A program made the translations under genes and the position numbers. From a virus (taxonomy: Duplodnaviria > Caudoviricetes): DNA of 64,000 bases. This document shows positions 18,001-62,177 of the stretch, piece after piece; the stretch's first letter is position 1; each line of letters starts with the position of its first letter. The notes beneath the pieces are model-generated. The model searched no databases. It saw only the letters and a list, made by a program, of their open reading frames with translations, and had not been told where the DNA came from. The stretch lies in IMG/VR virus record IMGVR_UViG_3300048575_000392, positions 12,145-76,144 of that record. One strand, 5' to 3'.

Positions 18001-20030
18001 ATCGTCACCACCTTGCTTCCGCCGACCGAATCGATGGCATAGTCGTCTTTCGACAGCCCGAGGGCGTGCATCCTGACGATCGCGTCCTCGTTCGAGATAT
18101 CCCCGAGGTTGACCTCCAGGCTTTCCGGGTCTTTCGAGCCCTTGAGCTCCACAACCATAGCCGCGGAGGCTTCGAGGCTCCCAAGGGCCTGGCCGATGAT
18201 GCGATTCGCCTCATCGAGGTAGGAAAGCCGTGACTCGTTGAGCTCGGCCGCGGCCGCGAGGTCGGCGGGGTTGGCCGCGATCTCTTCCTTGATCGATTCG
18301 GCTCGCGCGAGGAGGTCCTTTCCCCTCTCGATGGCCTCGGAGGCGATGGTCTCGTTGACGGCTTCGTGGTAGCGCGCCATGCCCTCCGCGAAGGTCTTGT
18401 AGTCCTCCGTGGACATCGATCGGCGAGCCATCATCGCTAGGAGCTTCGAACTCGCCCCGACCCCGAGAAGGTCGACAGCATCGCGGTCGAGGCCTTCCGT
18501 CTTCATGGCTGCCAGGGCGATAGAGTTGAAACCGGAGTAGTTGCCGTTGGCTATCCACTTCTCGGCGCCGCCGGGGTTCTTCGCGATCGCGTCGAGAAGG
18601 GAGGAGTGAACGGTCGCCTGGCGCTCCGTCTTGATTCTCTCAGCCTCGCTCTCGAGGTCGGCGTCCAGGAGCTCGTGGAAGTCCAGCGTGACGCCCTTGC
18701 CGTAGGCGAGGTCCTCGACTGAATCGGCGGCTTCGTCGGCCGTCCCGTCGAGCTTGATTTGGGTCCCGCCGTCCTTCTTCTTGTCGAGCTCGGCGAGCTT
18801 CTTCTTCATCTCCAGATAGTGCTTCAGGACCTCCGTCTTCTTGTCCACCTCGGCTATTGGGGCGCGGGGCGTCTCCTCGCGCTCGTACATGTCGTTCTTG
18901 ACGCCGTTGATCCGCCGGTTCGTCTCAATGCCGCGGGTGATCATGAAGGCCAGACTGGGGTTATCCTTTGCGATCTCGGCCATGCGCTCGGAGAACATCT
19001 CGTCCTTCTCCTGCTTCAAGGCCTCCTCGTCCAGACCGCCCTTCTTTTCGGCGCTCTCCCGGTATCCGGCCACGAAGCCCTTGCCGTGCCCGGAATTCTC
19101 CTTTTTGAGCACTTCCCCGGCGCCGGTGTCTCCGCCAAGGCCGGCCTCCACCTGCGCCCGCAGGTCCGCGTCGCCGATGAGCTCGCGCTGTATCTGCCTC
19201 ACGGCATCCTTAGCTGAGGACATGAAGTTCGCCCTCTGGCTCTTGACGGCGCGCTCCTCGGCCTTCTTGTTGACTTCGAGCTCCTTCTCCAGCCGCTTCA
19301 CGGCCACCTTGTCCCCGTCCTCCTCGGCCTGCGTCATCTCTTCGAGGAGGGCCTTCCGCGGCTGGGCGAAGTCTTCCTCGATCGGGGACGGGTCCCACCC
19401 CATGAGGTCGGCCATGTAGGAGGTGAAACCCTCTTCGGCCTCAGCTCGGGCCTTCTTTTCTTCCGCCACGGCCTGTTTTTGCAGATCCTTGGCTGCCTTC
19501 TTCTGGGACTTGTACTCCTTCCGCTCGTCGGCGCCCATGCGGGAGACTTCCTCTTGCTCTCGGAGCTTCTCCTCGAGCTGCTTCCGCTTCTTGTCTTCCT
19601 TCCGCTGCTCCATCGCCTGGGCGTACTCGTCCTTGCTCTTGATCTTGTTCAGCTTGAGCCCGTTGAGCTTGCCGCCGGCGCCGGCGATGACGTGGGCCGT
19701 CCCGCTGCCGGTATCCTGGATTAGGACCGGAGTCCCGTCTTCTGCCCCATTTGGATGGACCGTGATCCACCGCGCACCCCGCGGAAGAGCCGCCTTCGCC
19801 TTCGGGGCGGCAGCCTGGCGCTCTCCTCCGGTTCCGGCGCCGATGGACTCGGCCTTCTGGAGGCGGATGTACTCCCGCGCCACGCGGAGCGACTTCTGCA
19901 TGGTGAAATACTCGCGGATCGAGAGTTCGGTATACCCGTCGGGCTCTACGTCCAGGACGCCGGACTTCCGAAGCTGTTCGAGCCCCTCGGGCCTGTATGC
20001 GTAGCTTTCGATTCTGTAGAACATGCTCAC
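15063..20030 (-). CDS. Large polyvalent protein with C-terminal SNF2-family helicase
   Basis: 1655 aa; FGTGKGKT, TVDEAH, SDAGATGLNLQ and QREGRIDR motifs; N-terminal ARWITVHPNG segment. Confidence 0.8.
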   Translation of the reverse strand: MSMFYRIESYAYRPEGLEQLRKSGVLDVEPDGYTELSIREYFTMQKSLRVAREYIRLQKAESIGAGTGGERQAAAPKAKAALPRGARWITVHPNGAEDGTPVLIQDTGSGTAHVIAGAGGKLNGLKLNKIKSKDEYAQAMEQRKEDKKRKQLEEKLREQEEVSRMGADERKEYKSQKKAAKDLQKQAVAEEKKARAEAEEGFTSYMADLMGWDPSPIEEDFAQPRKALLEEMTQAEEDGDKVAVKRLEKELEVNKKAEERAVKSQRANFMSSAKDAVRQIQRELIGDADLRAQVEAGLGGDTGAGEVLKKENSGHGKGFVAGYRESAEKKGGLDEEALKQEKDEMFSERMAEIAKDNPSLAFMITRGIETNRRINGVKNDMYEREETPRAPIAEVDKKTEVLKHYLEMKKKLAELDKKKDGGTQIKLDGTADEAADSVEDLAYGKGVTLDFHELLDADLESEAERIKTERQATVHSSLLDAIAKNPGGAEKWIANGNYSGFNSIALAAMKTEGLDRDAVDLLGVGASSKLLAMMARRSMSTEDYKTFAEGMARYHEAVNETIASEAIERGKDLLARAESIKEEIAANPADLAAAAELNESRLSYLDEANRIIGQALGSLEASAAMVVELKGSKDPESLEVNLGDISNEDAIVRMHALGLSKDDYAIDSVGGSKVVTIKTPDKLIHPVDAEELQIEEEVDAIKAGERDEENWLPAGLVRRDAESFDDPGPDTETPAGDVDNQSLGDDAEAIHKTEEAVHRTLGEMPEGAFAFKLLEDLTPQDQTDLRRYWERNIYKGSMAEATSGQNLATGKAASRQGAWAKFLKGENGGSEEAAFAAIRQDLIENHSTEDMFGEKDIPPLARVVPGNWATYRANVDGARELFDAIDDLRDPSMVTDAAAAEREVKKLEGELPGKLEELYQSQMKDHYLKWMSGHTEEEFNAGESRQEKSPWGEYARMHGDTDRAQAAIIDRIRGDFTERFIKNYGRVTGKKLATKVEKIRNAQDHVLGMLHKDVRDSYTDRFKREMGEAGGELANRANGRFASGSWKDKLGEYIEEKKRAEAAQGDMFGGDDLKQDDGTEILSIGRRAETQLASMIPDLSRNQLRGQRYAVSTMQAKGERQRAIKMFEATKRMNLTFGTGKGKTIISIGAFTELKSKGKAKRAIFAVPSVVLSQFGNEVNVFCEPGKYRVKSDPSLSRDDRIQAMKDGKLDMVVFTHQSLRDDMVHLMAKHNDKDPEAMKAHFNAQSPEERQRLLGEALKKEGIAFDMLTVDEAHYTTNRKGKEDTTLSNVIDALNQNVTYFMNQTATPVKNDISEAFDMLHKVAPDRFNDRNEFIKRYGVDSDFARRSLQRLISRYNYASPTVTGVKKVSKKEIVPLTGEQAAEYANVETMFQRASKAQRSGTVDVEAMRALSPSSFRNQPEAKHEEIARRLQESSGTIKEEALNRVVNQFDWKKNAKISRAVDIIEKKVYEEANPKTASQAGDRKPGVIFAHNIQTVENLRAALEAKGCRVGIIQGSMNGAEKEKVKVGFNPPNPKDRIYDIILCSDAGATGLNLQNAAYLMNFDLPQTSWVKQQREGRIDRMGQAHKEIEYHDIVSDTEHEKKKWERIQRKKAIGSIFEEDPGVLDDTGLAATIAAVRQDRYNQGIDKEKAA

Positions 20031-23000
20031 CTCACGATCAGCTTTTTGCCGTGATTCGCCTTCTTGAAGGCCTCTTCCTTGAACGCCTCGATGCTCGTCT
20101 CATCCATCCGGCCGAAGAATCCGGGCCGGTCATACTGTTTCAAGTAGGCCGCCTTGGCCTCCTCGGGGCCGTCGAAGCCGAACATGATCTTGTCCTCGTC
20201 GTAGTCCCCGGTCACCGGGTCGTTCTGATGGACCACGAAGACCTTCTCCGACTCGGTATCGGGGCCGATGTAGCAGTCGAGGTGGTCCTTATCCTTCCCG
20301 ACGGTCCCTCGGATGTACCCGTAGTCGAAGTGCATCTTCGTTTCCCACTCGTGGCCGTCCTTGTCGACGCCGCGGCGGACGCTGCCCTTCCGGTTCTCGA
20401 TGCTGATGTCCATGCCCTGGAGCGTCGTCCTGCCCTGGAGCTTATGCCCGCTCCAGGTCTCGGCCTTCTCTAGGCGGAGAGCCTTGAGGAGCTCGTCGTC
20501 CTCAACGAAGAAACGCTCGACGAGGGGGAGGACCTTCGCCTCGTAGACCTCCTGCTTGGGATGATTCCCGCGCTTGTTCCAGGTTTCCTGGTATTCGGCC
20601 TGGGCTTCGCGCTTCGTGGCGAAGAACTGCTCGAGCGCGCGGGCGAAGCACTCGCAGGTACGGTTCTGGTAATCCGAGGTCTGGGCCGTGGCCATGTTCG
20701 AGCGGAACGTCCGCGCGATCTGGCCGGGGAGCGAGGACCAATCGTCCGAGGCGTAAAAGTGGCGCCCTCCCCGCGTGCCGAGGTAGTTGTCCATGAAGTG
20801 CGCCCACTCGTGCGCGAGCGTGAACCCGAAGCCGGTTTCGCCGTTCTGCATGGTGACGCCGATCGCATGATGGGCAGGAAAGTAGACGCCGGCCGCGTTC
20901 CGGGCGTGCATGAGCACCTTCCCGGAGTGGCTCACCTTGAGGCCGAAGCCTTTGGCCATGGAGGAGCGGTTCCCATAGATGCTGTATACCGCGTCCAGGG
21001 CGGTCTTGATGTCCTGGATCTCCTTCGTGTTGATCGCGTCGCCATTCTGGCGCTTCACGAGCACGCCGTACTCGTCCAGGAGGTCCTTCCTCGTCCCCTT
21101 GTCGCCGTAGGCCGTCTCCTGCCCCTTGGCATAGGCGGAATAGTTCTCCTCGATCTGGATGTTCATGTCGGAGAGCTTCTGCTTCATGTCGACGACGGCC
21201 TCTCGGATAGGCTTCCACCTCGCCGAGCCCTGCACGTCGAGAAGGGCGGAGGCCATGGAAAGCGTCGTCCTCATGGCCTTGTTCTCTCCGAGCATCCTCA
21301 CGGAGGTCTTCTTGAGCCTCATGCCGGAATAGAGCTTCGCCTGCTTTTCGTCGTACTCCTTCGCTCGGACCTTCGCCCGCTTCAGGTAGTAGTCCTGCAT
21401 CGCAGCCAGGACATCGACCCCGACTCGGGCGTAAAGCACGCCCAAGGAAGCCTTCCCGTCGCCAAGGCGCACCATGTAGTCGCCGTCGCCGAGCTTCACG
21501 GCCTCGACGCGGTTCCCCGAGCTGTCGAAGTACCTGTCGTCGATTCGGGGTATCCAGCCAGGCGCGGGCTTCCCCAGAATATCCTTCTCGGAGGCGAGGC
21601 TGATCTTGACGGGGATCGCATCCCGGAAGTCGAGGTACTCCACCTTGTCGCCCTTCACGCGCCGCGGCTCGAAGGTGTAGGGCTCCGGAGGCCGCTCCTC
21701 CAGCTTCGCGCCGAAGAGCTGGGCCTCGGTGGCGGCCCGCGTCTCGGGCGAGGCCTTGGCCATGAGGGCGGCCACTTTGTCGGGTTCCCTCTCAGGGATA
21801 ATCTCCTTGATGTCCTCGGGCTTCACGGCGAGCATCTCCCTGTCCGCGAGGACGTGGGACACGCCGCCGGCGAAGTAGCTGATCTTCCCGATGGCCTTCT
21901 TACCGTTCTTCCCCTTGAACGACACCTTGGCGCCGTTCTTGAGCTGGGCGAGGAGCTTCTGGCGCCAGAGGGCCTCCTCGACCTCCGCCTCGGCGAACAT
22001 GTCGAACTGCACCCCGAGGGGGGTGTCTTTCTTGGCCTCCGCGGGAAGGACCCACACGGTCGTCTCGAAGCGCGTCCCGTCCCTCGTCACGAAGACCTTC
22101 TTCGGTACCAGCTTCGGGTTCCTGCGCGATTTCTCCAGCATGGGGATGATGAAAAGGGCCTTCCTGAGCGACTCCGACTCTTGCAAGTCGCTATTAGCGG
22201 CGGTATACTCTGAGGTGGAGGGTCTGGAAATGCCTAACATCGAATCCAAAGACATGGACTTCTTCGAGCGCGAGGACGTGCCCTTCGCCCGCGACAACGC
22301 CTCCCGGAAGTGCTTCCGCGTCTTCTCCGACAGCTCCTTGAAGGAATCCCCGATCACCCTCGCCGACTTGATGGTGAACGGCCGCGCGATCTCGAAGGAC
22401 GAGGCCCTGCGGTTGGCGAAAGCCTCCGGAGACTGACTCGCCGCCCACGCTTCCTGATACAGCGCTATCTGTGCGCCCCCGACCAATCGAGTGATCTTGT
22501 CGTTCTTCGGCTCATCCTTCAGCTCCCGCCACACCTCATAGAACACGTGCCCTTCGCTCTTGGCCTCGGCCATCGCCTTCGTGGTGAGCTGGACCTCGGA
22601 TATCATCCCATTCGGTAGCTTCACGTTCATGTTGATGTCACGGTACCCGACCGGCGAAGGCGTGGCGAAGTTGTTCTTCAGTCTCATCACCCGCGGGTCC
22701 GCCATGAAGAACTCCACGGCGGCCGCCATGGATTCCAGCCCGTCGAATATCAGGGTATGGCCGTCGAAGTCGTAGACCTGGGAGGCGTCGGGGGCGCAGT
22801 CCTCGCGCATCTTCTCCTCAACGCGGCCGCGGTCCTTCAGCTTGTCCCGAGACTGCACTTCGAGGGCCCCGAGCTTCTTCGCGGCCTCTTCGACGGAGGC
22901 CTTGAACCCCGCCCTGGCGTCCTCCGCGAGGCGGTAGAGCTCCTCGATATCCTTGGAGGGCTGCACGAGGTTCTTCTTGTCGATTCTCTTCTGGTAGTCC

Positions 23001-23872
23001 GGGTCGAGAAGATGCTCCACCTGTTCCGATGAATGCCGAGGGGAGGAGGCCTCTTCGCCCGCCGGCCGCCGCGGGGTGGCCTCCTCGTCTCCAGGGCGGA
23101 CGTAGCGCATCTGCTTGACGATGGCCCCGTCCTTTCGATGCACGTCGACGGCCCGCCGGACCAAGCGGGAGAGGTCACGCGCTTTCGCGAGGATAGGAAC
23201 CGCGAGGAGCGCCGACATCGCCTTCTTGAGTCCGAGCCTCTTCGCCGATTCGATGGCCGCCGGCTCGTCAACCAGGCCAGCCTCGATGAGCTTCTTGTAG
23301 TAGTCGGGATCTTCCTTGAGGTGGTCCTCGGCGATCTTGCGGGCCTCCGCGCGGCCTTCGTGGTGCTCCATCTCGACCTTGATACCCACAGCCAGCTCGG
23401 GGTTATGGGTTTCGGCTACACCGAGGAGCTCCTTTTCCGTCAAAAGGCCCGCCGAGGATACTGCCTTCCACACGGGGCTCGATTTCTGAATGACGAGCTT
23501 CTTCGCGACTTCCCTGCGCTCCGTCCTGGCCTGGGGCCGAACCTCGTCGAACTTGGAAATGATCGCGAGCTTCCCGTCCTTGAGCCCTACGCCGAGGACT
23601 ACTCCGCGCTGCCAGTCGCCACCGGCCTCGAAGTAGGCGATGTCCTTCCCGTAGCGGATAAGCTCGCAGTTCTCGAGGTCGAGCCCCTGAGGGAATCCAT
23701 CCAGGTCTTTCAGCTTGCTCTTGTTGCCGTAGATGTCGATCTTCCCATCTTCCCCCGCGAACAGCTTCATGAAGGCCGCGTAGAATCGGCTATCCAGTCC
23801 TCCCTCGGGGATCGATTTCGCTACGAGGCTCTCCTCGTTGTCGGTGTTCTTCCTGATATACAATCCGGGCAT
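20027..23872 (-). CDS. Large polyvalent protein: DUF5661-like, RelA/SpoT-type synthetase, KOW-like, zincin/LPD1-like and inorganic pyrophosphatase domains
   Basis: GIKVEMEH...DHLKEDPDYY; LKDRGRVEEK/DFDG/GYRDINMNV/EVQL/GHVFYE; AHEWAH and ECFARALEQ; YGYIRGTVGKDKDHLDCYIG...YDEDKIMFGF. Confidence 0.8.
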   Translation of the reverse strand: MPGLYIRKNTDNEESLVAKSIPEGGLDSRFYAAFMKLFAGEDGKIDIYGNKSKLKDLDGFPQGLDLENCELIRYGKDIAYFEAGGDWQRGVVLGVGLKDGKLAIISKFDEVRPQARTERREVAKKLVIQKSSPVWKAVSSAGLLTEKELLGVAETHNPELAVGIKVEMEHHEGRAEARKIAEDHLKEDPDYYKKLIEAGLVDEPAAIESAKRLGLKKAMSALLAVPILAKARDLSRLVRRAVDVHRKDGAIVKQMRYVRPGDEEATPRRPAGEEASSPRHSSEQVEHLLDPDYQKRIDKKNLVQPSKDIEELYRLAEDARAGFKASVEEAAKKLGALEVQSRDKLKDRGRVEEKMREDCAPDASQVYDFDGHTLIFDGLESMAAAVEFFMADPRVMRLKNNFATPSPVGYRDINMNVKLPNGMISEVQLTTKAMAEAKSEGHVFYEVWRELKDEPKNDKITRLVGGAQIALYQEAWAASQSPEAFANRRASSFEIARPFTIKSARVIGDSFKELSEKTRKHFREALSRAKGTSSRSKKSMSLDSMLGISRPSTSEYTAANSDLQESESLRKALFIIPMLEKSRRNPKLVPKKVFVTRDGTRFETTVWVLPAEAKKDTPLGVQFDMFAEAEVEEALWRQKLLAQLKNGAKVSFKGKNGKKAIGKISYFAGGVSHVLADREMLAVKPEDIKEIIPEREPDKVAALMAKASPETRAATEAQLFGAKLEERPPEPYTFEPRRVKGDKVEYLDFRDAIPVKISLASEKDILGKPAPGWIPRIDDRYFDSSGNRVEAVKLGDGDYMVRLGDGKASLGVLYARVGVDVLAAMQDYYLKRAKVRAKEYDEKQAKLYSGMRLKKTSVRMLGENKAMRTTLSMASALLDVQGSARWKPIREAVVDMKQKLSDMNIQIEENYSAYAKGQETAYGDKGTRKDLLDEYGVLVKRQNGDAINTKEIQDIKTALDAVYSIYGNRSSMAKGFGLKVSHSGKVLMHARNAAGVYFPAHHAIGVTMQNGETGFGFTLAHEWAHFMDNYLGTRGGRHFYASDDWSSLPGQIARTFRSNMATAQTSDYQNRTCECFARALEQFFATKREAQAEYQETWNKRGNHPKQEVYEAKVLPLVERFFVEDDELLKALRLEKAETWSGHKLQGRTTLQGMDISIENRKGSVRRGVDKDGHEWETKMHFDYGYIRGTVGKDKDHLDCYIGPDTESEKVFVVHQNDPVTGDYDEDKIMFGFDGPEEAKAAYLKQYDRPGFFGRMDETSIEAFKEEAFKKANHGKKLIVR
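22181..22209 (+). promoter_or_regulatory. Near-consensus sigma70 promoter inside the polyvalent gene, on the antisense strand
   Basis: TTGCAA(22181-22186)-N17-TATACT(22204-22209), followed by GAGGTGGAGG RBS at 22212-22221. Confidence 0.75.
22230..22436 (+). CDS. Nested antisense 68-aa protein, candidate immunity/antitoxin for the RelA/SpoT domain
   Basis: MPNIESKDMDFFEREDVPFARDNASRKCFRVFSDSSLKESPITLADLMVNGRAISKDEALRLAKASGD; own promoter and RBS; GC3-rich phage-like codons. Confidence 0.72.
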   Translation: MPNIESKDMDFFEREDVPFARDNASRKCFRVFSDSSLKESPITLADLMVNGRAISKDEALRLAKASGD

Positions 23873-24329: not shown

Positions 24330-27300
24330 TCAGCCCTCCTTTCTCATTATACCCAGTCGCGGACCATTCCGGTAGATCATGCGCATCGACTTCTCGACCT
24401 GCGGGCGCTTCCTGAACGCATAGCCCGCCCTTCCGCCGTAGGCGCGGTTGTACTCGACCTCGTAGTCCGGGTTCATCTCGATGATGTCGTGGAGCTCATA
24501 GGCCGAGGCCCCGCGGACCCCGCGGCGCTTCATACGCTCCACGATGTCTTCCACGGGCTTCCAATAGGTCGAGGCCATGGAGTCGATATACTCGGCCTCC
24601 TTGTGGGCCCGGTAGGCCTTCATGGCCGGCTCCTTGAGCGCCTCGGCGATGCCTGTCTGCTCGAAGACCGGATCGTTGATCGCGCCGCCATCCGCCTCAG
24701 CCTCGCCCGAGCGCACGGCCGCGACGATCCGCGCCCGGTCCTCAGCGACATAGGGGTTGAGCGCCTCCTTGATGTCTTTCTCGGAGAAGGACCATCCCTT
24801 CGAGGCGATCTCAACCTTCCCCTCGGCGTTGACCTTGCAGTACCGGGTCTCCCGGTCGGGCGAGAGCCGGAGCATATCCCGATAGCGGTCCCGCTTGAAG
24901 GCTTCCGCCTGGCCGGCGAAGTCCGCCGGGGCATAGAGAGACTTGAGGCCGGACAGGTCTTCCTTTGTCGGGCTCGCTACGTGCGTCCAGTGCTCCCCGC
25001 CGCCCTGCTTCCACTCGACCCAATCGGAAGTCCACCCGCTCCCCTCCTGGGAAGCGGGCTTCAGGAGCATCGTCTGCTTCTTGTGGTTGATGGTCATGGC
25101 GACGAAGGGGCCGCTCCTCATCATGAACACGTCGCCCGGCTTGTAGACCCGACGCTCCGCCTTGTCGTAGATGAAGTCGGGCGGGTTGTCCTTGAGGAGC
25201 TCGAGATTCTGAAATTCCGGGTTGCCTCTGAGGGCCTCTTCCATGTTGTAGAGCTTCCGGAGGCGGTTCTGGTACTGGACGGTGCCCTTGTCCCCCTCGA
25301 AGCCGCGGATCGAGCCCCGCATGAGGCTGAGGGCCGCGAGCGTCTCGTGGACCTTCTGGGCGTTCGCCTCCTTGATCTTGCCGGTCTTGATCTTCTCCAT
25401 CTCCGCGCGCCGCTCGTTGGCCTTCTCCTTGTCGCCCCACTCTTCGGTGAGGGCGAGGAGGAGCTCGTCGGGATCTACGAAGGAGTCGTCGTTCGGGTTG
25501 GTGAAGACGTTGGACTTGGTGCGGAGAAGCTGGTCGATCCAGTTCGCCTTGTTCTGTACGAGGTTGACGGAGTAATTGTCGATCGTCCCCGCGGTGAGGT
25601 AGGTGTTGAGCGCCACGGATGCCTGCCTGTTCCCCTGGCGGTCGATACGGCCGTTCCTCTGGATGAAGTCCGACGGGCGGTAGGGGATGTCGAAGTGGTG
25701 AAGGGCAGCGCTGTTGTCCTGGAGGTTCACACCCTCGCCGAGGGTCGGCGTCGTCCCTATGATTACCTTGTACTTCCCCGCGTTGAAGCCATCGATCGCC
25801 GCCGACACCTCCTTCTCGAGCGCCGTGTCGCTCTTCTTCCCGCCGGCCTTCGTGATGCCGTTCACCACGACGATCTCGGAGTCCTTGAATCCCTGTGCGA
25901 CGAGGGCGGCCTTGATCTTGTCGTGCATGTTGAAAGAGCCGTCGCCTGAGAGGACGCGGTCGCAGAATACGACCTGCCCGCCTCCCGTCGCCTTGAAGCT
26001 CTCCATGGCGTTCTCAGCGAGCTTCGACAGCTTCGGGTTCTTCCACCCAGCGTACTTCGAGGGGTTGTAGAGCTCGAGGTCGAGCGAGGCCGTCCGCATC
26101 CGCGAGTAGAAGGTGAGGAAGCTCTGGCCGGGGTACTTCTCGGCCTTTTCGTCGTTCCCCAGGGCCTTGAATTCCTCGAGCTGGGCCGAGAGATCGCGAA
26201 GCACGCCCGTCTGGTCTTCCTGCATGGGGATGACGTTCGGGTTGTTGTTGGCCTTCGGCTTCGGGAGGCCGATCTTCGTGGGATCGTTCTGGAGGTCGGT
26301 GTACTTGAAGAACATGTCCTGGAGGGTCCGCAGGTTCTTGAATCCCTTGAGTACCTTCGCGTCTATGGTCTTGCCCGTGCCCCAGTCGCACTTCGGCTGC
26401 ACCTCTATATCGGCGAAATTCCGGATGAAGTCGTCGATCGTCCTTATGTTCAGGCGGTCGAGCTCCTCCGGCGCGACGTGCATGAGCATGTTGTAGTATT
26501 CGAGCGGGCTGTTCGTGAGCGGCGTGGCGGTGAGAAGGAAGACGTTCTTGCCGTCATGCCCCCGCCGGATGAACTCGCTCTTCTTGAACAGGCTCATGGC
26601 GCGGTCCGAGCGCCGACCGTCGTTCATCCCCGTATCGCGGGAGAGGCTCGAGCTGAAGAGGTTCTTGTAGTTGTGGGCCTCGTCCACGAACAGGGCATCG
26701 CAACCGAAGTCCTCGAAGTTGATGGTCTGGTTCGTCTTCCCGGCTTCGAGCTTCCCGCGAGCCGTCTCCTTGGCCTGCTCGATCTTTCGGGAGCTCTTCG
26801 CGGCCGCCTTGTCCATGATCTGGCCGGCTACGATGTCGTCGGTGATGCGCTGGTCCTCCTCGGGCCTAAGCTGTATCTCGGAGGCCGCGGACTCGGGAAG
26901 GACGATCACGTCGAAGTCCCCGTTCGCGAGCTCCTGGTACATCTTGTAGCGCTTCACCTGGTTCGAGTATCCCTCCGTCTCGGGGTCCACGGCGCCCACC
27001 TTGAGGCCGGGCATGGCCTTGGCGATCTCCTTGATCCAGTCCTTCACCTTGTTGTTCGGGACCTGGACCATGGGCCGCTTGATCTTCCCCTCCTGCCGGA
27101 GGAGCCCGATCAGGCCGATCGCGGCAAGGGTCTTCCCGAAGCCCGTCCCGAGCGCCGTGATGCCCTTCCCGGCCCGGTAGAGGTGGTGGATGGACTGCCA
27201 TTGATGCCCGCCCAGGACGATCTTGGGGCTCCATCCGTCGATTCTCACGGCGTAGGTCTTCGTCGGAGCCCCGATCTCCGCGTTGAACTTCCGGTTGTAG

Positions 27301-30110
27301 AGCTCTTCGAGCTGCTTCCGGACCTCGGGGTTGTTCGACACCCAGTTCTTGAAGTTGTCCTCGGCGTTCCGGTTGAAGGTCTCGGTGTCGATCCGGCTCG
27401 AGCGCTGCTTCTGCATGTTGAGGAAGTAGACGAGCTCGTGGTTGTAGTCCTGCCAGTCCCCGGCCGCGATGGTATGCCCCGCCTCGCGCCAGTTCTTTCC
27501 TCGGACGTACTTGTCCTCGTCGTAGACGACGCCCCACTTCCCCTCCTCATTCCTCGCGAGGTGGAACTCACCGAAGGCGTACCCGAAGTCCATGCCGTTG
27601 CCGTCGCGGGCCCACTGGTCGATGAGCTCCTCAGGAATCCACGAGGACTGGGGCGTGAACTCCGCTTCCTCGATCGGGACCCATCCGACAGCCTTCTCCA
27701 GCTCGTCCACGCCATGCTGCCACTTCTCCCGCGCGGCCGCGAACTTCTCGCCGGGGTGCTTATCTATCGCCTTGCGGAGGGCGTCAACCTTGTCCCAGGC
27801 GTTCCCCGCGATGAAGTCTTCCCGAAGCTGCCAGGCCCCCTCGGGCGTCAGAAAGGCATCGGCGCACTCCTGAAGGGAGGCCTTGAGCCCCTCGAAGTCA
27901 TTCGGGAAGTAGGCGCGGAGCTGCTTCGGCGTGGCCTCGATCATGTTCCTCTGGAGGGTGAGGAGGGCCGTGACCGCCGGATTGTGCCCGTCGACGATCT
28001 CGATCTCCTTCGCATAGACGTTCTGCTTCGTGAGGAGGTCGTCGTCTATACCCACGAGGCCCTCGTAAACGCCCGCCAGAGCCGCATTGGCGTTGAGGAC
28101 CTTCCGGATATCCTTGTCTTCCCGCGGCGCCACGCCATAGGCCTCCTCGTAGGCCTGGAGGAGGCGCCGGGCCTCTCTCTGGAGATCGTCGACGGGTTCG
28201 TCGGCCCTCATGGCGTCCCGGATGCCTTTGACGGCCTCGGCTATCGCCTTGACGCGCTCGAGCTTCTCGGCCGCCACCTCGTCGGCGCCCTTCACGCGCT
28301 CCCATCGATGGTTCGCGTTCAGGCGGTAGACCCGGCCGTCCTCGCTCTTCGTCGCCCCCACGGTCAGGGTCTTGGCCGCGACGGCCTCCGCCTCTCCCTC
28401 CGTGAGCGCGAGCTCGTCGCCTTTCTTCTTTGGCGCCGCCGCGCCGCCCTTCGTCATGGAGCGCAGCCTGTCGAGGTCCTCCACCGTCATGTCCGCCTCG
28501 GGCTCGAAGCGGGACGCGGCCGCGTCCATGTCGGCGAGCGAGAGCTCCCCCTCTACCACGTCCCGGCCCCAGTTTCCGGCGCCCTCCGCGAGTGCGCCAA
28601 GGATGTGCTCGGGCTTCACTTTGTAGTAGGAGCCCTCGACCCATGCCTCATTCCAGAACCCGGCGGCCTTGAGACCTTTCTCGTCGAGCTGGGCGAGGCG
28701 CTGGCGCGTCTCCTCGGGGTACTTCCGGAAAAAGATGATATCCGGCTGTACGCCGGTCTGCGTATGCTTGAAGGAGCCGTTCGGGAGCCTCGCGGCGCCC
28801 ATGAACTGCCCCTTCTTGAGCATCTCGGCCCGCCAGTCCCGGTTCCCCTTGCCATCCATCACGCCGGGATGGACGATCAGCGCCATGGACCCGCCGTCGG
28901 CAAGTGCGTCCAGGGAGCGGGAGAGGAAGTAGCGGTCGAGACTCTTCTCCTCGGGCATGTCCATGAAGGAGGTGAGGACCGACCGATCGCCGAACGGGGC
29001 ATTCCCGACCACGCGCGAGAACTGGCGCTCGTTGTAGAGGTTGAACTGCTCGAAGCTCCCGGAATGGATCGCTGCGCCCTCCTGGAGGATCGAGGCGGCC
29101 GCGGCCGTCCTCTTGTCGAGCTCCACGCCGTGAAGATCCAGCCCTTCCGGGGCGACCTCGAAGAAAACGCCTGTCCCGCACGAGGGTTCAAGGACCGACT
29201 CGCCGGCCGCGATCGGGGCTATCTTGTCGAGCATCTTCCACGTCATCTTCGCCACTGGAGGGGAGGTGAAGAAGTCGTAGAGGACTCCGCGCTCGTCGTC
29301 CGCCTTCACGCCGCCGAAGCCCGAGTACCTCCGGACCTTCTCGACATCCTCGGCCGAAAGCTCATCGCGCGGCTTAAGGAGGAGCTCGGCGACCTCCTGA
29401 TTGAGCTTCGCCCTCGCCGCGGGGTTTAGGTGCTTTCCCTTATTTCCCCATGATCCGTAGTCCCTGAACGGGGTCTCCTTGATGGAGAGCGACAGGTCAC
29501 GCCGCTTCGTGTCCTCCGGGGAGGCTTCCTTTTCAGCCTTCTTGCGCTCCACGAGGTCCCCGAGCTTCCGCGCGAGGGAGTCAACGCGGGCCTGCTTCTT
29601 ATCCCCCGCGGCTTTCCGCTCCTTCAGCTTCGTCTCGCCAGCGGTCCCCGTGATGGCGTAGAAGGTCGCCCGTCCGTTGTTCCAGGCGAAGGCCTCGCCG
29701 GCGGCTACCTTGGCCTCCATGTAGCGCTTGGCCGCCGGCCCGCTTGTCTCGAAGCACTTCGTCACATCGGCCGAACTGAGTACGAGGTCCCCGTGGTCCT
29801 TCTTCCACTCCTGGAACTTGCCGTCCAGCTTGGAGCTCGCCGCCTTGACTGCCGGCGTCGGAGTCTTGGGCTTCTCGATGCCGAGCTTCGGCTCCTCCGC
29901 CGCGGGGGCGCCGCCATCGAAGAGGTCGAACTGGGCCGCCCGAGGCTTCTCCGCCTTGGCCTCGCTGGGGAGGACCCATACGCGCTTTCGGTAGGTGGTC
30001 CCGTCCTTGTTCGTGAGCGTGATGTCTCTCTGTACGAGGCGGGCGCTTCTCCTCGCCTTCTCGAGCGCGTCCTGCGCCGGTATCAGGATGAATCGCTGAA
30101 AAATGTTCAT
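24330..30110 (-). CDS. DarB-like polyvalent protein: N6-adenine methyltransferase plus SNF2 helicase
   Basis: Start re-called at MNIFQRF (ATGA overlap with MuF), 1926 aa; VLEPSCGTG and GNAPF methylase motifs; GTGFGKT, FVDEAH, LTATP and QRNGRIDRQG helicase motifs. Confidence 0.85.
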   Translation of the reverse strand: MNIFQRFILIPAQDALEKARRSARLVQRDITLTNKDGTTYRKRVWVLPSEAKAEKPRAAQFDLFDGGAPAAEEPKLGIEKPKTPTPAVKAASSKLDGKFQEWKKDHGDLVLSSADVTKCFETSGPAAKRYMEAKVAAGEAFAWNNGRATFYAITGTAGETKLKERKAAGDKKQARVDSLARKLGDLVERKKAEKEASPEDTKRRDLSLSIKETPFRDYGSWGNKGKHLNPAARAKLNQEVAELLLKPRDELSAEDVEKVRRYSGFGGVKADDERGVLYDFFTSPPVAKMTWKMLDKIAPIAAGESVLEPSCGTGVFFEVAPEGLDLHGVELDKRTAAAASILQEGAAIHSGSFEQFNLYNERQFSRVVGNAPFGDRSVLTSFMDMPEEKSLDRYFLSRSLDALADGGSMALIVHPGVMDGKGNRDWRAEMLKKGQFMGAARLPNGSFKHTQTGVQPDIIFFRKYPEETRQRLAQLDEKGLKAAGFWNEAWVEGSYYKVKPEHILGALAEGAGNWGRDVVEGELSLADMDAAASRFEPEADMTVEDLDRLRSMTKGGAAAPKKKGDELALTEGEAEAVAAKTLTVGATKSEDGRVYRLNANHRWERVKGADEVAAEKLERVKAIAEAVKGIRDAMRADEPVDDLQREARRLLQAYEEAYGVAPREDKDIRKVLNANAALAGVYEGLVGIDDDLLTKQNVYAKEIEIVDGHNPAVTALLTLQRNMIEATPKQLRAYFPNDFEGLKASLQECADAFLTPEGAWQLREDFIAGNAWDKVDALRKAIDKHPGEKFAAAREKWQHGVDELEKAVGWVPIEEAEFTPQSSWIPEELIDQWARDGNGMDFGYAFGEFHLARNEEGKWGVVYDEDKYVRGKNWREAGHTIAAGDWQDYNHELVYFLNMQKQRSSRIDTETFNRNAEDNFKNWVSNNPEVRKQLEELYNRKFNAEIGAPTKTYAVRIDGWSPKIVLGGHQWQSIHHLYRAGKGITALGTGFGKTLAAIGLIGLLRQEGKIKRPMVQVPNNKVKDWIKEIAKAMPGLKVGAVDPETEGYSNQVKRYKMYQELANGDFDVIVLPESAASEIQLRPEEDQRITDDIVAGQIMDKAAAKSSRKIEQAKETARGKLEAGKTNQTINFEDFGCDALFVDEAHNYKNLFSSSLSRDTGMNDGRRSDRAMSLFKKSEFIRRGHDGKNVFLLTATPLTNSPLEYYNMLMHVAPEELDRLNIRTIDDFIRNFADIEVQPKCDWGTGKTIDAKVLKGFKNLRTLQDMFFKYTDLQNDPTKIGLPKPKANNNPNVIPMQEDQTGVLRDLSAQLEEFKALGNDEKAEKYPGQSFLTFYSRMRTASLDLELYNPSKYAGWKNPKLSKLAENAMESFKATGGGQVVFCDRVLSGDGSFNMHDKIKAALVAQGFKDSEIVVVNGITKAGGKKSDTALEKEVSAAIDGFNAGKYKVIIGTTPTLGEGVNLQDNSAALHHFDIPYRPSDFIQRNGRIDRQGNRQASVALNTYLTAGTIDNYSVNLVQNKANWIDQLLRTKSNVFTNPNDDSFVDPDELLLALTEEWGDKEKANERRAEMEKIKTGKIKEANAQKVHETLAALSLMRGSIRGFEGDKGTVQYQNRLRKLYNMEEALRGNPEFQNLELLKDNPPDFIYDKAERRVYKPGDVFMMRSGPFVAMTINHKKQTMLLKPASQEGSGWTSDWVEWKQGGGEHWTHVASPTKEDLSGLKSLYAPADFAGQAEAFKRDRYRDMLRLSPDRETRYCKVNAEGKVEIASKGWSFSEKDIKEALNPYVAEDRARIVAAVRSGEAEADGGAINDPVFEQTGIAEALKEPAMKAYRAHKEAEYIDSMASTYWKPVEDIVERMKRRGVRGASAYELHDIIEMNPDYEVEYNRAYGGRAGYAFRKRPQVEKSMRMIYRNGPRLGIMRKEG

Positions 30111-54093: not shown

Positions 54094-55260
54094 CTACTTA
54101 CCCTCCTTATCGCGGCGGCGCCCCTCGGAGGCCTTGAAGTTGTAGGTCGGCTTGAGCATGGAGACCACCTGGACGGTGGGCTTGATCGCTTCGAGGATCA
54201 TGTCCCTGGACTTGTAGGCCATTGGGGCCTCGTCGAGCGTGCTGGAGTTCGCCGTCGAGGAGTAGACACCATTTGCGGCGAGCCTGGCTTGGTATTCCTT
54301 GTAGTCGAGCTGCGCGAAGGCCTGGGTGCGGCTCATGATACGCCCTGCGCCGTGCGGGGCCGACTGGTTCCAATCCTCGTTCCCTAGGCCGCAGCAGATG
54401 GCGGACCCCTCCGCCGAATTGAAGGGGATAATGCAGAGCTCGCCGGCGCGCGCGCTGATGGCGCCTTTCCGGATCACCCTGTCCTCGAAGTCGATGTAGT
54501 TGTGTACTGACTCGATGGTCGTCGTGTCCGACCCACCAATGCAGCGCCCGATGAAGGTGGAGATTTTCACCATCATGTCGTGCCGGTTCAGCGACGCGTA
54601 GCGCTGCGCGACCGCCATGGCATCGAGATACTCCGCGGCGAGGGGATTGTCCCTCGGGATGAACTCCATGTCGCGCTCAGGCTCGATAAGGAAGCTCTCC
54701 AGGAGCTTCCTCGCCGCCGCCTGATAGAAGTCGGCTACACGCTTCCCGAAGTTCCTGGAGCCGGAATGGATGACCACCCAGGTATCTCCAGTCTCGTCCA
54801 CGTCGACCTCGATAAAGTGATTGCCCCCCCCCAGCGAGCCTATGGCCCGGCGCACGTCGATGAAGCTCGCGCCGATGCGCTTGCAGACCTTGGCCAGCGA
54901 GTCGTAGAAGCCCGCCTCGAGCCCGTCGCGCGGCTCCTCGTTGATGCAGTGCCCCGAGGGGATGTTAGCCTTGATGAAGGCATCGAGCTCCTCGTATTCG
55001 ACCCCAATGGCGCCGAGGCGGCAGGCGAGCATCCCGCAGCCGATGTCCACGCCCACGATCTGGGGCATGATGTAGTCCCCGAGCTGGCTCGTGAACCCCA
55101 CGCAGGACCCCTTGCCGGCGTGGCAGTCGGGCATGATCGCGATCCGGCGCTTCCCGAAGGCGGGATGATTGAGGAAGCCCTGGATCTGCTCCCTCGTGGC
55201 GTCATCGATCGAGTCGATCATGACTTTGGCGAAATTGTACTTCCCCTTCATCACCTGCAT
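54094..55260 (-). CDS. rtcB: RtcB-family RNA ligase
   Basis: IMPDCHAG, GVDIGCG, GSLGGGNHF, IHSGSR, SAPHGAGR and DEAPMAYK motifs; start re-called at MQVMKG. Confidence 0.92.
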   Translation of the reverse strand: MQVMKGKYNFAKVMIDSIDDATREQIQGFLNHPAFGKRRIAIMPDCHAGKGSCVGFTSQLGDYIMPQIVGVDIGCGMLACRLGAIGVEYEELDAFIKANIPSGHCINEEPRDGLEAGFYDSLAKVCKRIGASFIDVRRAIGSLGGGNHFIEVDVDETGDTWVVIHSGSRNFGKRVADFYQAAARKLLESFLIEPERDMEFIPRDNPLAAEYLDAMAVAQRYASLNRHDMMVKISTFIGRCIGGSDTTTIESVHNYIDFEDRVIRKGAISARAGELCIIPFNSAEGSAICCGLGNEDWNQSAPHGAGRIMSRTQAFAQLDYKEYQARLAANGVYSSTANSSTLDEAPMAYKSRDMILEAIKPTVQVVSMLKPTYNFKASEGRRRDKEGK

Positions 55261-55270
55261 GTTTTTTCCC

Positions 55271-55453
55271 TCACAGCCCGGAATCGGCGTCCGAGAACGC
55301 CATCCCGTGCGCATCGGTAGTCACATCGCAAGGTATTCCCCTGCGAGCCGTCTCTACTTCCTTCTTCCGGCGGAGATCTTTTTGGAGGTCATCGAAATCG
55401 TAGGTCCTCCCTGAGCACACCTCATCGACCATTTCCCGCGTCCTGTTTTTCAT
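55271..55453 (-). CDS. Small hypothetical protein
   Basis: MKNRTRE start, ATGA-coupled. Confidence 0.35.
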   Translation of the reverse strand: MKNRTREMVDEVCSGRTYDFDDLQKDLRRKKEVETARRGIPCDVTTDAHGMAFSDADSGL

Positions 55454-59393: not shown

Positions 59394-60218
59394 CTACTCG
59401 CTGTCGGGGAGGGGGTCATCAGCGGCGAGAGGTGGGGTAACTTGGTTGATCCGTGCGAGGGCTCGCGCGGCGGCCGCGCGGCCCGAGCTATTAAGCTGGC
59501 GCTGCCAGGCCCCGACAGATGGAGCCCAGCGGAAGCCCTCGGACTTGAGGACGGCTCTCTTCGCCTCGTCGGGCTTGCCCTTGAAAACAAGCTGGATGCG
59601 CATGAGGTCCGGGTCCTCGACAACGCGCACGTCGCCAACCACACGCTCTGAGGCCGGCGCCGCCTTCTCCTCAGCGAGGGCCTTCCGTCGCGCCTCGAGC
59701 CTTCGGATGTTCGCGCCCAGGTTGGTGAGCTGGAAACTCTCGAATCCGTAGCATCCGAAGCAGTTCGGCTCCATAAGCTTTTTGGCTCTCTCAGGGGACC
59801 ATACAAGCTCGGCAAGCTCCGATTCGAGCGGCTTCCCGGCTAAAATGCCGCGAACGAGGACATTCGCCTTTTTCATGGTGTCCCGGAGCTTGCGCATCTT
59901 TTCGAGCTTCGCGTCTATCTCGGCAACGGGGTCCTCTGCATCCGCGTAGATCGACGTGTTGTTCTCGGCGGCATCGGCCCGGCGATCGAGATCGTCAGCC
60001 TGGCCTGAGGCGGCGATACTCTTCCGCATGAGGTTGTCACAGCGCTCGTGGTCCCGGCGTGCTCCCGCCTCGGAGTGATGGCCAACGAGGATGGGCTGGC
60101 CCATGTAGAAACGCTCTGCGATCTTATCGGAGCTCTTCTGGGCGGCCGCAGCCTCGCCTCGGGCCTCCTCGGCGCGCTCACGAAGACGATCCGCACGGCC
60201 TTCGCGTGCGGCTCTCAT
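59394..60218 (-). CDS. DUF3560-domain protein
   Basis: GQPILVGHHSE..ARRD; C-terminal RIQLVFKGKPD...LKSEGFRWAPSVGAWQR. Confidence 0.8.
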   Translation of the reverse strand: MRAAREGRADRLRERAEEARGEAAAAQKSSDKIAERFYMGQPILVGHHSEAGARRDHERCDNLMRKSIAASGQADDLDRRADAAENNTSIYADAEDPVAEIDAKLEKMRKLRDTMKKANVLVRGILAGKPLESELAELVWSPERAKKLMEPNCFGCYGFESFQLTNLGANIRRLEARRKALAEEKAAPASERVVGDVRVVEDPDLMRIQLVFKGKPDEAKRAVLKSEGFRWAPSVGAWQRQLNSSGRAAAARALARINQVTPPLAADDPLPDSE

Positions 60219-60532
60219 GAGTACGCCACCTTCTCAGCATGGTGAGCGCGCCAGTTCGCAAAGGTCCGCTGTACAGCGTCCATCCGACTCTGATCGGTGT
60301 GATAGTCGAGCCACTCGCCCCACGAGCTAGGAGTGTCCTTCGCCAAGTCAGTAGGTGTACTGCCGGTGAACGGCCTACAGGCGCATTCCGCGTGGATGAC
60401 GACTTTTTTGCCAGGGCGAAGCTCTCCCCAAACGACGGAATCGCCGTCGGCCATGATGCGATTGCAGACTCGGCACCGATGCGCGTGTTTTCGCAGATTG
60501 AGGGCGCGGCGATAGACGGCGAAGACCCTCAC
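60215..60532 (-). CDS. Zn-finger hypothetical protein
   Basis: GTG start coupled to the upstream regulator stop (GTGA); CRVC...HAEC motif. Confidence 0.5.
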   Translation of the reverse strand: MRVFAVYRRALNLRKHAHRCRVCNRIMADGDSVVWGELRPGKKVVIHAECACRPFTGSTPTDLAKDTPSSWGEWLDYHTDQSRMDAVQRTFANWRAHHAEKVAYS

Positions 60533-60723
60533 GACCGTTCCCTGGCAGATGAAAGACACTCGGCAAGATCCCGAGCCTGTACAGACTCGTCCATTCCAAT
60601 ATCGAGGAGATAGCGCGCCTCTTCCGCCAAGGTACGATGATCCTTCTTGGCGCGCGCTCGAAGTCGCTTTTTGAGAGCCTCGGGGCAACGAATTGTCATA
60701 AAATCGGTGTTACTGGTCGGCAT
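60529..60723 (-). CDS. Arc-like ribbon-helix-helix regulator (Cro position)
   Basis: FMTIRCPEALKKRLRARAKKDHRTLAEEARYLL; first gene of the lytic operon. Confidence 0.75.
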   Translation of the reverse strand: MPTSNTDFMTIRCPEALKKRLRARAKKDHRTLAEEARYLLDIGMDESVQARDLAECLSSARERS

Positions 60724-60743
60724 GGTTTCACCTCACGAAAACC

Positions 60744-60772
60744 AACATAAACCCACCAATACACCTTGTCAA
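60744..60772 (-). promoter_or_regulatory. Early lytic sigma70 promoter
   Basis: TTGACA(60772-60767)-N17-TATGTT(60749-60744), followed by a GAGGTG RBS. Confidence 0.75.
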
Positions 60773-60825
60773 TAGTTTTTGTTGATTTTTGTGGGATGAT
60801 TGCCGAAAATAAAGTGGAGGGAAAA

Positions 60826-61089
60826 ATGGCAAGACCGAAAAGCAAAGACCCAAAATCCGAATACATTACAATTCGAATTACCGAGGATCTGCGTGGGCGC
60901 TTTGATACGCTACATGAGAGGAGTTATTCCTCCCTTGAAAAGCAACAATTCGCAGGATTATTGATTTTGAAGGGAATCGAGCGGCTAGAGAGATTAGAAA
61001 AACTTGAGCTTGAGGCTGATGAAACAACTAATAGTGAAATGCCTAATGAAGTCGATACCAGTCTTTCCAAGGCGGCCGGAGACAAATAG
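60826..61089 (+). CDS. Ribbon-helix-helix regulator (repressor position)
   Basis: Start re-called at MARPKSK (GGAGG RBS); EYITIRITEDLRGRF; divergent from the Arc-like gene. Confidence 0.7.
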   Translation: MARPKSKDPKSEYITIRITEDLRGRFDTLHERSYSSLEKQQFAGLLILKGIERLERLEKLELEADETTNSEMPNEVDTSLSKAAGDK

Positions 61090-61196
61090 TTCCTTTCCCG
61101 GCTGGACAGGTTCCGGCCGCCATACGACAATATCAATGTAAAATATTGCCCTTTCGGGTAAAGGAATAAACGTCCAGCTATGAAACATGGCATCCC

Positions 61197-61700
61197 GTGA
61201 ACTTACCTGTGTTTAAAATATCAAAGCCAGCTACATGGGTATTCGCAGCCGATAAACCTGCCCAATGGAAAGGCATTCCGCTTTGTGATCGAGATACAAG
61301 TCGCCAGCTTACCGAAACCGATATTGTTCAGTTTTTCCAGGCAACCTTCGCGTTTCTAGAAAGAGATGGAAAATACATTCCCTATGACGAGAAGATCAAG
61401 GCCGTAAAAACAATCCTAAACAGAATGATCCGGCCACCTGAGAAAAGGGCGATCAACCGCGATGTGAATAAATCACTACTTGCCGCTGCCATGGCAAAAA
61501 TGAAAGCGAAAGAAGCCATTTGGGGTGATGCTGTCATCAGGGCAAAGGCCGAGTTCGAGAATAGAGGTATTAACGATCCTGATGATGATACGCCCGGCTA
61601 TCGTGAACGGGTGAACGAATTATTCCAAGAGATTTACAGCACATCTCCAGTCAATGACCGCGGCAAGTGGGCGGAAGACTGGTTCAAGAAGTACATGTAA
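61197..61700 (+). CDS. Mini-MuF: internally deleted homolog of the phage's own minor head protein
   Basis: Manual alignment to MuF aa about 78-153 and to a 54-aa segment at the MuF C-terminus (27/54 identical, ungapped). Confidence 0.75.
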   Translation: MNLPVFKISKPATWVFAADKPAQWKGIPLCDRDTSRQLTETDIVQFFQATFAFLERDGKYIPYDEKIKAVKTILNRMIRPPEKRAINRDVNKSLLAAAMAKMKAKEAIWGDAVIRAKAEFENRGINDPDDDTPGYRERVNELFQEIYSTSPVNDRGKWAEDWFKKYM

Positions 61701-61836
61701 AATGGCTTCGGCTGAACGCCAGGCCGTCAAGGATCGATTAACCCGGTCTCGGACATATCCGTTCATGTTCGAGAGTTTTCTGCCACTTCCTTTCCAATAT
61801 TTATTTTTCTGAATATTGACTCGGCGAAGTCCGAGT

Positions 61837-62166
61837 CGCCGAAGGCGTCTTTAGGTCAGTCGAGCGAATCGCTGTATTATATTAATTCTATTCCTTTCCT
61901 TTCCCTTCTATTCCTTTCTCTTCTTCTGGGGCTGAGGGCTCACTGAGCATCCACGTCATTGCAGTGAGGACTCACTGAATAGCGTTATTTTGATGACATA
62001 TTATGTCTTTTGCTTACATATGAAGCACGTTTGCATATTATCTCCATATTTTGGCATTGGAGTGATCCGGAGAGACAAAAAAGGCGCCCTCAGAGGTTTT
62101 TAGCCCCGAAAAGCGCCTTGTTTTGACGATTCACTGAATACTCAGTGAGGACTCAGTGATTGCTCA
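61837..62166. repeat. Non-coding second copy of the ori-like block, with TCA(C/G)TGA iteron arrays
   Basis: CGCCGAAGGCGT at 61837; pyrimidine tract; CAGTGAG-GA-CTCACTG at 61962-61977; 11-bp-period array at 62131-62166. Confidence 0.65.
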
Positions 62167-62177
62167 TTCTCTAGTCA

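Follow-up and report, generated by a model that had tools for sequence, protein, structure and literature searches.

Does a phage gene for a virion protein with a putative toxin domain also carry, on its opposite strand, the gene of the antidote? This question is raised by ORF68, an open reading frame (ORF) of 68 codons in a provirus of the Caudoviricetes. The stretch of DNA analyzed here (64,000 nucleotides, in the following called the window) is the right-hand 64 kb of the 76-kb IMG/VR provirus record IMGVR_UViG_3300048575_000392. Its GC content is about 62% and its genes are almost all located on the minus strand. ORF68 runs on the plus strand and lies wholly within a minus-strand ORF of 1281 amino acids, opposite residues 479-548, where a RelA/SpoT-type (RSH) domain ends. 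An earlier note, made from the sequence, had described it as a hidden antisense gene and likely embedded antitoxin. The present analysis arrives at a similar view: ORF68 is a genuine nested antisense gene and most likely encodes an immunity protein of the Tis1/IapK type that blocks the adjacent Tas1/Apk-like domain. The features on which the argument is built are as follows.

22230-22436, plus strand: ORF68 (ATG at 22230, TGA at 22434-22436), 68 codons, a candidate immunity protein with a Tis1-like fold, judged from its family, its free-standing homologs and an AlphaFold2 (AF2) model.
20027-23872, minus strand: polyvalent virion protein gene, 1281 amino acids, comprising in this order DUF5661, the RelA/SpoT-type domain, a linker, the phrog_22901 region and InPase.
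22421-22975, minus strand: Tas1/Apk-like RelA/SpoT domain with the fold of a small alarmone synthetase (SAS), about residues 300-484, assigned by phmmer, Foldseek and Pfam.

Inspection of the locus showed that the elements described earlier are all present: the pair TTGCAA-N17-TATACT, a ribosome-binding site 8 nt before the ATG at 22230 and the 68-codon frame inside the 1281-aa ORF. The stop of ORF68 falls, as had been observed, at the C-terminal edge of the RSH domain or slightly inside it (the alignment with Tas1 reaches about residue 484). The sense stretch opposite ORF68 is indeed rich in Ser, Arg, Lys and Phe, which account for 48.6% of its residues compared to 26% of the whole protein and place it in the top 1.2% of all 70-aa windows.

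Three other properties had been taken as signs of coding and do not serve as such. The GC content at third codon positions (GC3) is 0.90 in ORF68 and 0.87 in the sense frame, and the former is inherited from the latter because codon position 3 of ORF68 faces position 3 of the sense strand. The frame of ORF68 stays open in 2000 of 2000 synonymous shuffles that keep the sense protein, and in 69-100% of those made for relatives. This test is uninformative rather than negative, since the sense sequence on which it is conditioned would itself bear the imprint of a real antisense gene. Promoter-like sites occur once in 6 kb, with 1.1 expected by chance. Thus, openness, GC3 and the single promoter match carry no weight in the window alone. 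From the window alone ORF68 could be a shadow ORF, held open by high GC3 and by the composition of the sense linker, preceded by a chance promoter and without a product; long antisense ORFs are frequent at this GC content.

The frame of ORF68 is found again in other genomes. A family profile was first built from four embedded copies, those of the window and of three relatives of the polyvalent gene (L001, L002 and the distant L004). These relatives retain GGAGG and an open ORF68 frame, with 88% identity to ORF68 in L001 and 43% in L002. The start codon is retained in L001 and L002; in L004, which has a GC content of 41% and an RSH domain that is about 35-42% identical, the start reads GGAGGTG-N6-TTG. 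The profile of the four copies retrieved eight proteins that had already been called by gene callers, and a full scan of 1.84 billion representative proteins with a hidden Markov model (HMM) of the family yielded 23 clusters, nearly all of 66-103 aa. Common to the family are the motifs FFE-x(1-2)-[ED]D-[VI]-PFA, F-[KR]-[VI], SD-x-S-[LF]-K and I-S-x-x-E-A-x-R-L-A, in this order. Pfam gave no match for any of the 12 members tested at E-values up to 10, and NCBIfam returned only noise. The family is rare, unnamed and new at the level of sequence.

Several of the homologs are free-standing. The protein P0002 (L016) has 68 aa, is 87% identical to ORF68 and is encoded by a stand-alone gene in a row of prophage genes, between a gene for a sigma-70 region 4 protein and a Bro-N gene. 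Its locus resembles the window only from the start of ORF68 to its stop. P0005 (L012; 55% identical) is also stand-alone and is found on 24 contigs, with five stops in the opposite frame. P0010 is a further stand-alone copy whose opposite frame is interrupted by stops; at L029, as at L012, the opposite frame is broken in this way. Since free-standing homologs exist, some of them with a closed opposite frame, the frame of ORF68 codes, and ORF68 is almost certainly a real gene, as had been supposed. The orphan copies sit by prophage repressors and integrases.

The frame of ORF68 is open upstream to 21879 (185 codons). A longer product of 181 aa starting from an ATG in this extension (21891-22436) was considered and rejected: the start lies close to the FFE motif in every homolog, and P0002 begins with the same Met-Pro-Asn. 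Two other identities were discarded as well. A HigA-like C-terminal helix scored weakly in Pfam and NCBIfam (E 0.035-0.13) and is counted as noise. Identity as a HicA toxin (PF07927) has no Pfam match, and in L016 a separate, true hicA adjoins hicB.

Further searches added little. A metagenome scan gave only seven loci, and when viral sequences were scanned a second time, with the family profile, a single, already known locus was recovered. No relatives were found when genome contigs were scanned with an alignment of the RSH domain and linker, and blastn of positions 21500-23000 against phage and plasmid collections gave no match. The provirus contains no second copy of the family.

The small gene and the RSH domain are linked. 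A member of the ORF68 family is placed antisense over the end of an RSH domain in five divergent lineages, with GC contents of 41-62%:

Lineage 1 (window, L001 and L002): small gene antisense to the end of the RSH domain.
Lineage 2 (L004): small gene antisense to the end of the RSH domain.
Lineage 3 (L028, 44% GC): small gene antisense to the end of the RSH domain.
Lineage 4 (L020 and L021): the RSH ORF reads on through the small gene and ends about 60 nt past it.
Lineage 5 (L022 and L023): the small gene is intact but the RSH ORF carries a frameshift; the surroundings are those of a bacterial chromosome.

The more distant RSH homologs L005-L009 are devoid of the family. The stand-alone copies of L010, L011 and L019 are still flanked by a remnant of about 35 codons of the RSH C-terminus. 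The domains around the pair differ between polyvalent genes: their order is LPD3-ART-InPase-DUF5661-DUF6582-RSH...LPD1 in L001 and DUF5661-RSH...InPase in the window. For this reason the RSH domain and the antisense gene are regarded as a cassette that moves as a unit.

Two of these loci deserve a separate description. In L022 (3709-5299) the RSH ORF is broken into three frames and lies among genes for peptidase M3, LysR and M20, and the small gene has kept a near-consensus promoter (TTGATT-N17-TATAAT), its Shine-Dalgarno (SD) sequence and its ATG. The small gene has the appearance of an immunity gene that outlasted its decayed toxin. In the distant RSH homologs L005 and L006 the ORF ends at the RSH domain and is followed by a co-directional ORF of 72-75 aa that overlaps its stop by 4 nt (L005 632-859 and L006 2604-2822, both on the plus strand), which is the ordinary layout of toxin and immunity genes. 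These small downstream ORFs have no match in Pfam, and hhalign detected no similarity to the ORF68 family.

The nature of both partners is indicated by structure. For the sense domain, the best match of phmmer in the PDB is Tas1 (6OX6_A, E 1e-6), followed by YwaC at 4.5e-3. Foldseek places the model of this domain next to SAS2, RelP and Tas1 with E-values of 2-4e-7 and a template modeling (TM) score, by target, of 0.66, which corresponds to the SAS fold. The AF2 model of ORF68, calculated from an alignment of 12 rows, consists of strands and two helices and has a predicted local distance difference test (pLDDT) score of 90.7. Its best full-length match in Foldseek is Tis1 (6OX6_B; probability 0.69, TM 0.49). 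VIA-align superimposes 61 of the 68 residues on the same chain with an r.m.s. deviation of 3.9 and a Z-score of 5.2, rank 2 among 48,161 representatives; in a second VIA pass (pdb_via) 6OX6_B is ranked first and the next match has a Z-score of 3.2. Furthermore, the ESM Atlas model of the homolog P0004 lies near a cluster (TM 0.53) in which 23% of the members carry PF24154, Tis1_ImmP. A fold search of BFVD with ORF68 returned only uncharacterized phage proteins, with E-values of at least 0.06. Tis1 and Tas1 are the immunity protein and the toxin of one crystal entry. As a Z-score of 5.2 alone is weak, the argument for Tis1 draws on the coincidence with a Tas1-like neighbor. ORF68 is Tis1-like by fold and context, a similarity between models and structures and not proof of homology.

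Promoter and ribosome-binding site are at the following positions.

22181-22209, plus strand: sigma-70-like promoter of ORF68 (TTGCAA at 22181-22186, a 17-nt spacer and TATACT at 22204-22209), the -10 element ending 20 nt before the ATG.
22212-22221, plus strand: SD region GAGGTGGAGG, 8 nt before the ATG at 22230.

Corresponding pairs are TTGCAT-N17-TATACT in L001 and L002, TTGTCA-N17-TATACT in L020 and the L022 pair given above; L019 and L028 also have one. A -35/-10 pair with a 17-nt spacer and at least 9 of 12 consensus positions lies 19-22 nt before the start in the window, L002, L020, L022 and L019, and at 25 nt in L028. The L001 promoter scores 8 of 12 at the same place, and L004 has TTGACA-N17-TATGCT at 31 nt. 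No promoter pair precedes the copies located behind another gene in an operon (L016, L012 and L024). GGAGG or GGAGGTG is retained in L001, L002, L004, L020, L022 and L028. Judged from these sequences, the recurrence of a predicted promoter at a fixed distance among proteins with 30-45% identity is far above the chance rate for a single site. The sense strand bears a trace of it: GC3 of the sense frame dips to 0.65 over the codons of promoter and SD, and the rare codons TAT, TTG, CAA, TCA, AAT, GCT and AGA spell the -35, the -10 and the SD. The idea that the gene has its own promoter is thereby strengthened, although not by the single match in the window. With a sigma-70-like promoter of its own and a strong ribosome-binding site, ORF68 should be expressible independently of the late operon.

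Both strands had been thought to be constrained. Counting of substitutions that are synonymous in one frame only gave too few discordant sites and did not separate the frames, because the two share their third positions. The frames were therefore compared by Smith-Waterman scores; in ordinary parts of the same genes the ratio of shadow to coding frame is 0.46-1.0. Between the window and L004 the score is 69 in the ORF68 frame and 40 in the sense frame. In L002 the ORF68 region is partially duplicated in tandem. Copy B has kept the ATG and the ORF68 frame and scores 129 in this frame compared to 78 in the sense frame. In copy A the start is gone and a stop interrupts the ORF68 frame; here the sense frame scores 161 and that of ORF68 105. 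Thus, in copy B and in L004 the ratio of ORF68 to sense score is about 1.5-1.7, and the usual relation is inverted at long range. The alignments suggest that in a single copy both frames are of importance, the two roles having parted after the duplication in L002.

The model of the sense protein is in line with this. The RSH core is confident up to about residue 480, helices with pLDDT values of 62-85 extend through about residue 530, and values are below 50 for residues 533-585. The stretch opposite ORF68 and its upstream region is accordingly divided as follows.

22283-22436, both strands: probable dual-coding stretch, on the minus strand the helices after the RSH core (residues 479-530), on the plus strand residues about 18-68 of ORF68.
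22118-22276, minus strand: low-confidence sense linker (pLDDT below 50), residues 533-585, probably disordered, facing the N-terminus of ORF68, its SD and its promoter.

About 150 nt therefore appear to code on both strands, for helices that follow the toxin core and for the C-terminal two-thirds of the putative inhibitor. Just past the linker, the sense protein contains a motif, KLVPKKVFVTRDGTRFETTVWVLP (22037-22126, minus strand), that recurs in L001 (RLVPVKKTVVRNGHTYSATYWILP) and L028 (LVKKPILVTRMGKVYRAEKWVRP).

A role can be proposed on this basis. The polyvalent protein would be made late, packaged in the virion and injected, and its RSH domain, a presumed (p)ppApp-type alarmone synthetase, would perturb the nucleotide pools of the host. 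Host RNA polymerase would transcribe ORF68 from its own promoter, against the late operon, so that the lysogen, and a cell that the phage DNA has just entered, may contain the small protein. In these cells it would bind and block the RSH domain and protect the producing or lysogenic cell. Since about 150 nt appear to code on both strands, toxin domain and antidote would travel as one inseparable cassette among differently built polyvalent proteins. Orphan copies could shield lysogens from toxin-armed relatives. That ORF68 is the immunity protein of the adjacent RSH domain is probable, binding and neutralization being predicted from the Tis1-like fold and the conserved position. An HD-type alarmone hydrolase, which would be an alternative source of immunity, was not found in the provirus.

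The same data allow a more far-reaching model. Toxin domain and antidote would be encoded on opposite strands of the same 150-200 nt or so, both frames would be under selection, neither partner could be separated by recombination or loss, and the pair would be shuffled as a unit. The promoter of the antidote would set the timing, with the antidote present in the lysogen and early and the toxin made late and packaged, and free copies in other prophages would serve in defence against virions by which this toxin is injected. This combination of claims is tentative, and we place its chances slightly below even.

Several observations weigh against an immunity function. The family profiles of ORF68 have no sequence match to PF24154 (Tis1_ImmP) or to the Tis1 chain 6OX6_B, and a search of the whole provirus for PF24154 at E-values up to 10 found nothing. 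The Z-score of 5.2 is within the range that small β-rich folds reach by chance. The RSH domain itself is just below the Pfam cut-off (RelA_SpoT, residues 345-441, 24.8 bits compared to the cut-off of 27 bits), and its activity is a prediction. Many members of the family are orphans: the DNA retrieved for L012, L016, L024 and L029 contains no RSH gene. The small protein of L002 is only 43% identical to ORF68 though the RSH domains are 84% identical. Finally, the predicted transcription start leaves a very short leader.

Copies of the family also occur near HicB-like genes. In L010 (978-1286) and L011 (494-943) a stand-alone copy lies directly upstream of a gene for a HicB-like antitoxin, and in L016 (5624-6216) a copy lies two genes from a hicA-hicB pair. 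These sites may be toxin-antitoxin or moron islands, or may reflect a second partnership.

The strongest competing explanation accepts the gene and denies the inhibitor: ORF68 would be a mobile moron with another role (partner of a HicB-like protein, regulator or anti-defence protein) that rides in the polyvalent gene since the linker tolerates the insert. Such a role would fit the orphan copies that lie in regulatory or moron regions of prophages without an RSH gene nearby, the HicB-like and hicA-hicB neighbors and the purely structural, modest resemblance to Tis1. It leaves unexplained why the same antisense position across the C-terminal end of the RSH domain is occupied in five lineages whose other domains differ, and why remnants of the RSH C-terminus lie beside the gene in L010, L011 and L019. 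Because these remnants persist, the HicB neighbor in L010 and L011 may be secondary. Furthermore, the top full-length match among some 48,000 fold representatives is the very partner of the closest relative of the neighboring domain, and orphan immunity genes are common for polymorphic toxins. A moron of this kind is therefore considered unlikely, though it deserves more credit than the two explanations that follow.

According to a second alternative the locus would act chiefly through an antisense RNA, which lowers the level of the late mRNA of the polyvalent gene as in type I toxin-antitoxin control, and the peptide would be incidental. The conserved promoter does point antisense into a late gene, and convergent transcription over the toxin region could lower its expression. 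Conservation, on the other hand, is at the level of the protein and extends to stand-alone copies with nothing to silence; SD and start codon are conserved, and the predicted fold is confident. A role of the RNA could be additional to that of the protein; as the main function it is very improbable. The shadow ORF, for which the intact frame in every synonymous shuffle, the frequency of long antisense ORFs and the promoter count at chance level could be quoted, is already contradicted by called stand-alone homologs with closed opposite frames, and it is scarcely credible in view of the 23 clusters, the high pLDDT, the better preservation of the ORF68 frame at long range, and a start, SD and promoter conserved down to 41% GC.

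An immunity protein encoded by ORF68 would have known counterparts. Tas1 (Apk1) and Tis1 of Pseudomonas aeruginosa (PDB 6OX6) have been described (PMC10083569, PMC11782079), and Tis1-like domains cover the acceptor site of (pp)pApp synthetases and thereby neutralize them (PMC11782079). The correspondence is twofold: the best solved relative of the sense domain is Tas1 and the best full-length fold match of ORF68 is Tis1, and a toxin is paired with a small structural immunity protein of about 70-76 aa, here a candidate. In contrast, the sequence of ORF68 resembles neither Tis1 nor PF24154 to a detectable degree. Tas1, a (p)ppApp synthetase, is a PAAR-fused effector of the type VI secretion system with a separate, adjacent immunity gene, whereas the RSH domain of the window lies in the interior of a phage polyvalent protein, with the small gene nested antisense.

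The setting is closer to that of phage MuF-fused Apk2 toxins with IapK/BcTis1 and Aph1 immunity genes (PMC10083569, PMC12226406). Both involve a temperate phage, a head-associated carrier and a MuF/portal neighborhood, and in both a Tas1-like RSH toxin domain is accompanied by a fast-diverging small immunity protein (a candidate in the window); rapid divergence and partner specificity have been described for IapK immunity proteins (PMC12226406). The distant RSH relatives L005 and L006, with their small co-directional ORF right after the toxin, have the ordinary layout of these systems. The polyvalent gene differs in that its toxin domain is not C-terminal, the ORF continuing for about 800 residues, and in that the immunity candidate lies on the opposite strand inside the ORF with its own promoter. 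The provirus is also devoid of an Aph-type hydrolase.

RelA/SpoT-containing polyvalent proteins have been surveyed (Iyer et al. 2017, PMC5512222), and the protein of the window belongs to the same giant, virion-packaged multidomain class, with InPase, DUF5661, LPD and ART domains among its relatives. The survey makes no mention of RSH immunity or of any antisense gene. Embedded antisense overlapping genes of bacteria (e.g. PMC8850804, PMC9927249) are comparable in that an ORF is fully inside and antisense to an annotated gene of a GC-rich genome and is discarded by gene callers. Those genes are young and lineage-restricted and their function is not known, whereas for ORF68 there are stand-alone homologs, a predicted fold and a putative functional link with the overlapped domain. 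In a literature search, which was not exhaustive, no paper on a protein antidote nested antisense in the coding sequence of its toxin was found. As far as found, the antisense-nested, partly dual-coding layout of an Apk/Tas1-Tis1-type pair is unreported.

Well-supported antisense nested protein genes are very few in bacteria and phages, and almost none has a known role. For ORF68, the existence of stand-alone homologs allows the case to be made by comparative genomics alone, and a specific function is predicted. The gene adds a new encoding of a putative toxin-immunity pair, and it may explain how a virion protein can contain an internal alarmone synthetase toxin domain without killing its producer. 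The expectation that standard gene callers would miss the gene holds, and immunity genes can be hidden in this way inside polyvalent genes. On the side of phage ecology, the presence of orphan copies in regulatory regions of prophages hints at a possible means of defence against phages armed with such a toxin.

The polyvalent gene is part of a head module, with terminase, portal and a MuF-like gene upstream and a capsid gene downstream. Within the protein, DUF5661 comprises residues 159-196, the phrog_22901 region residues 747-1131 and InPase residues 1146-1266. The ortholog in L002 (2134-7215, plus strand) is about 400 aa longer; an intein (Intein_splicing and a LAGLIDADG_3 homing endonuclease) interrupts its InPase at protein residues of about 1210-1613. 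Two further giant ORFs (helicase/methylase) flank the polyvalent gene of the window. Long antisense frames are open within the giant minus-strand genes, all on the plus strand: 550 codons at 20561-22213, 983 codons at 26478-29429 and 486 codons at 24489-25949. At least the first of these is an in-register frame left open by GC3-rich genes.

In the early region, a gene for an RtcB RNA ligase (54094-55314) and a DUF3560 gene (59394-60218) are present on the minus strand. An integrase gene is located at 62753-64000, in agreement with the record being a provirus. Across the last 4 kb (60001-64000), the integrase gene included, the GC content falls from about 0.62 to about 0.49-0.51.

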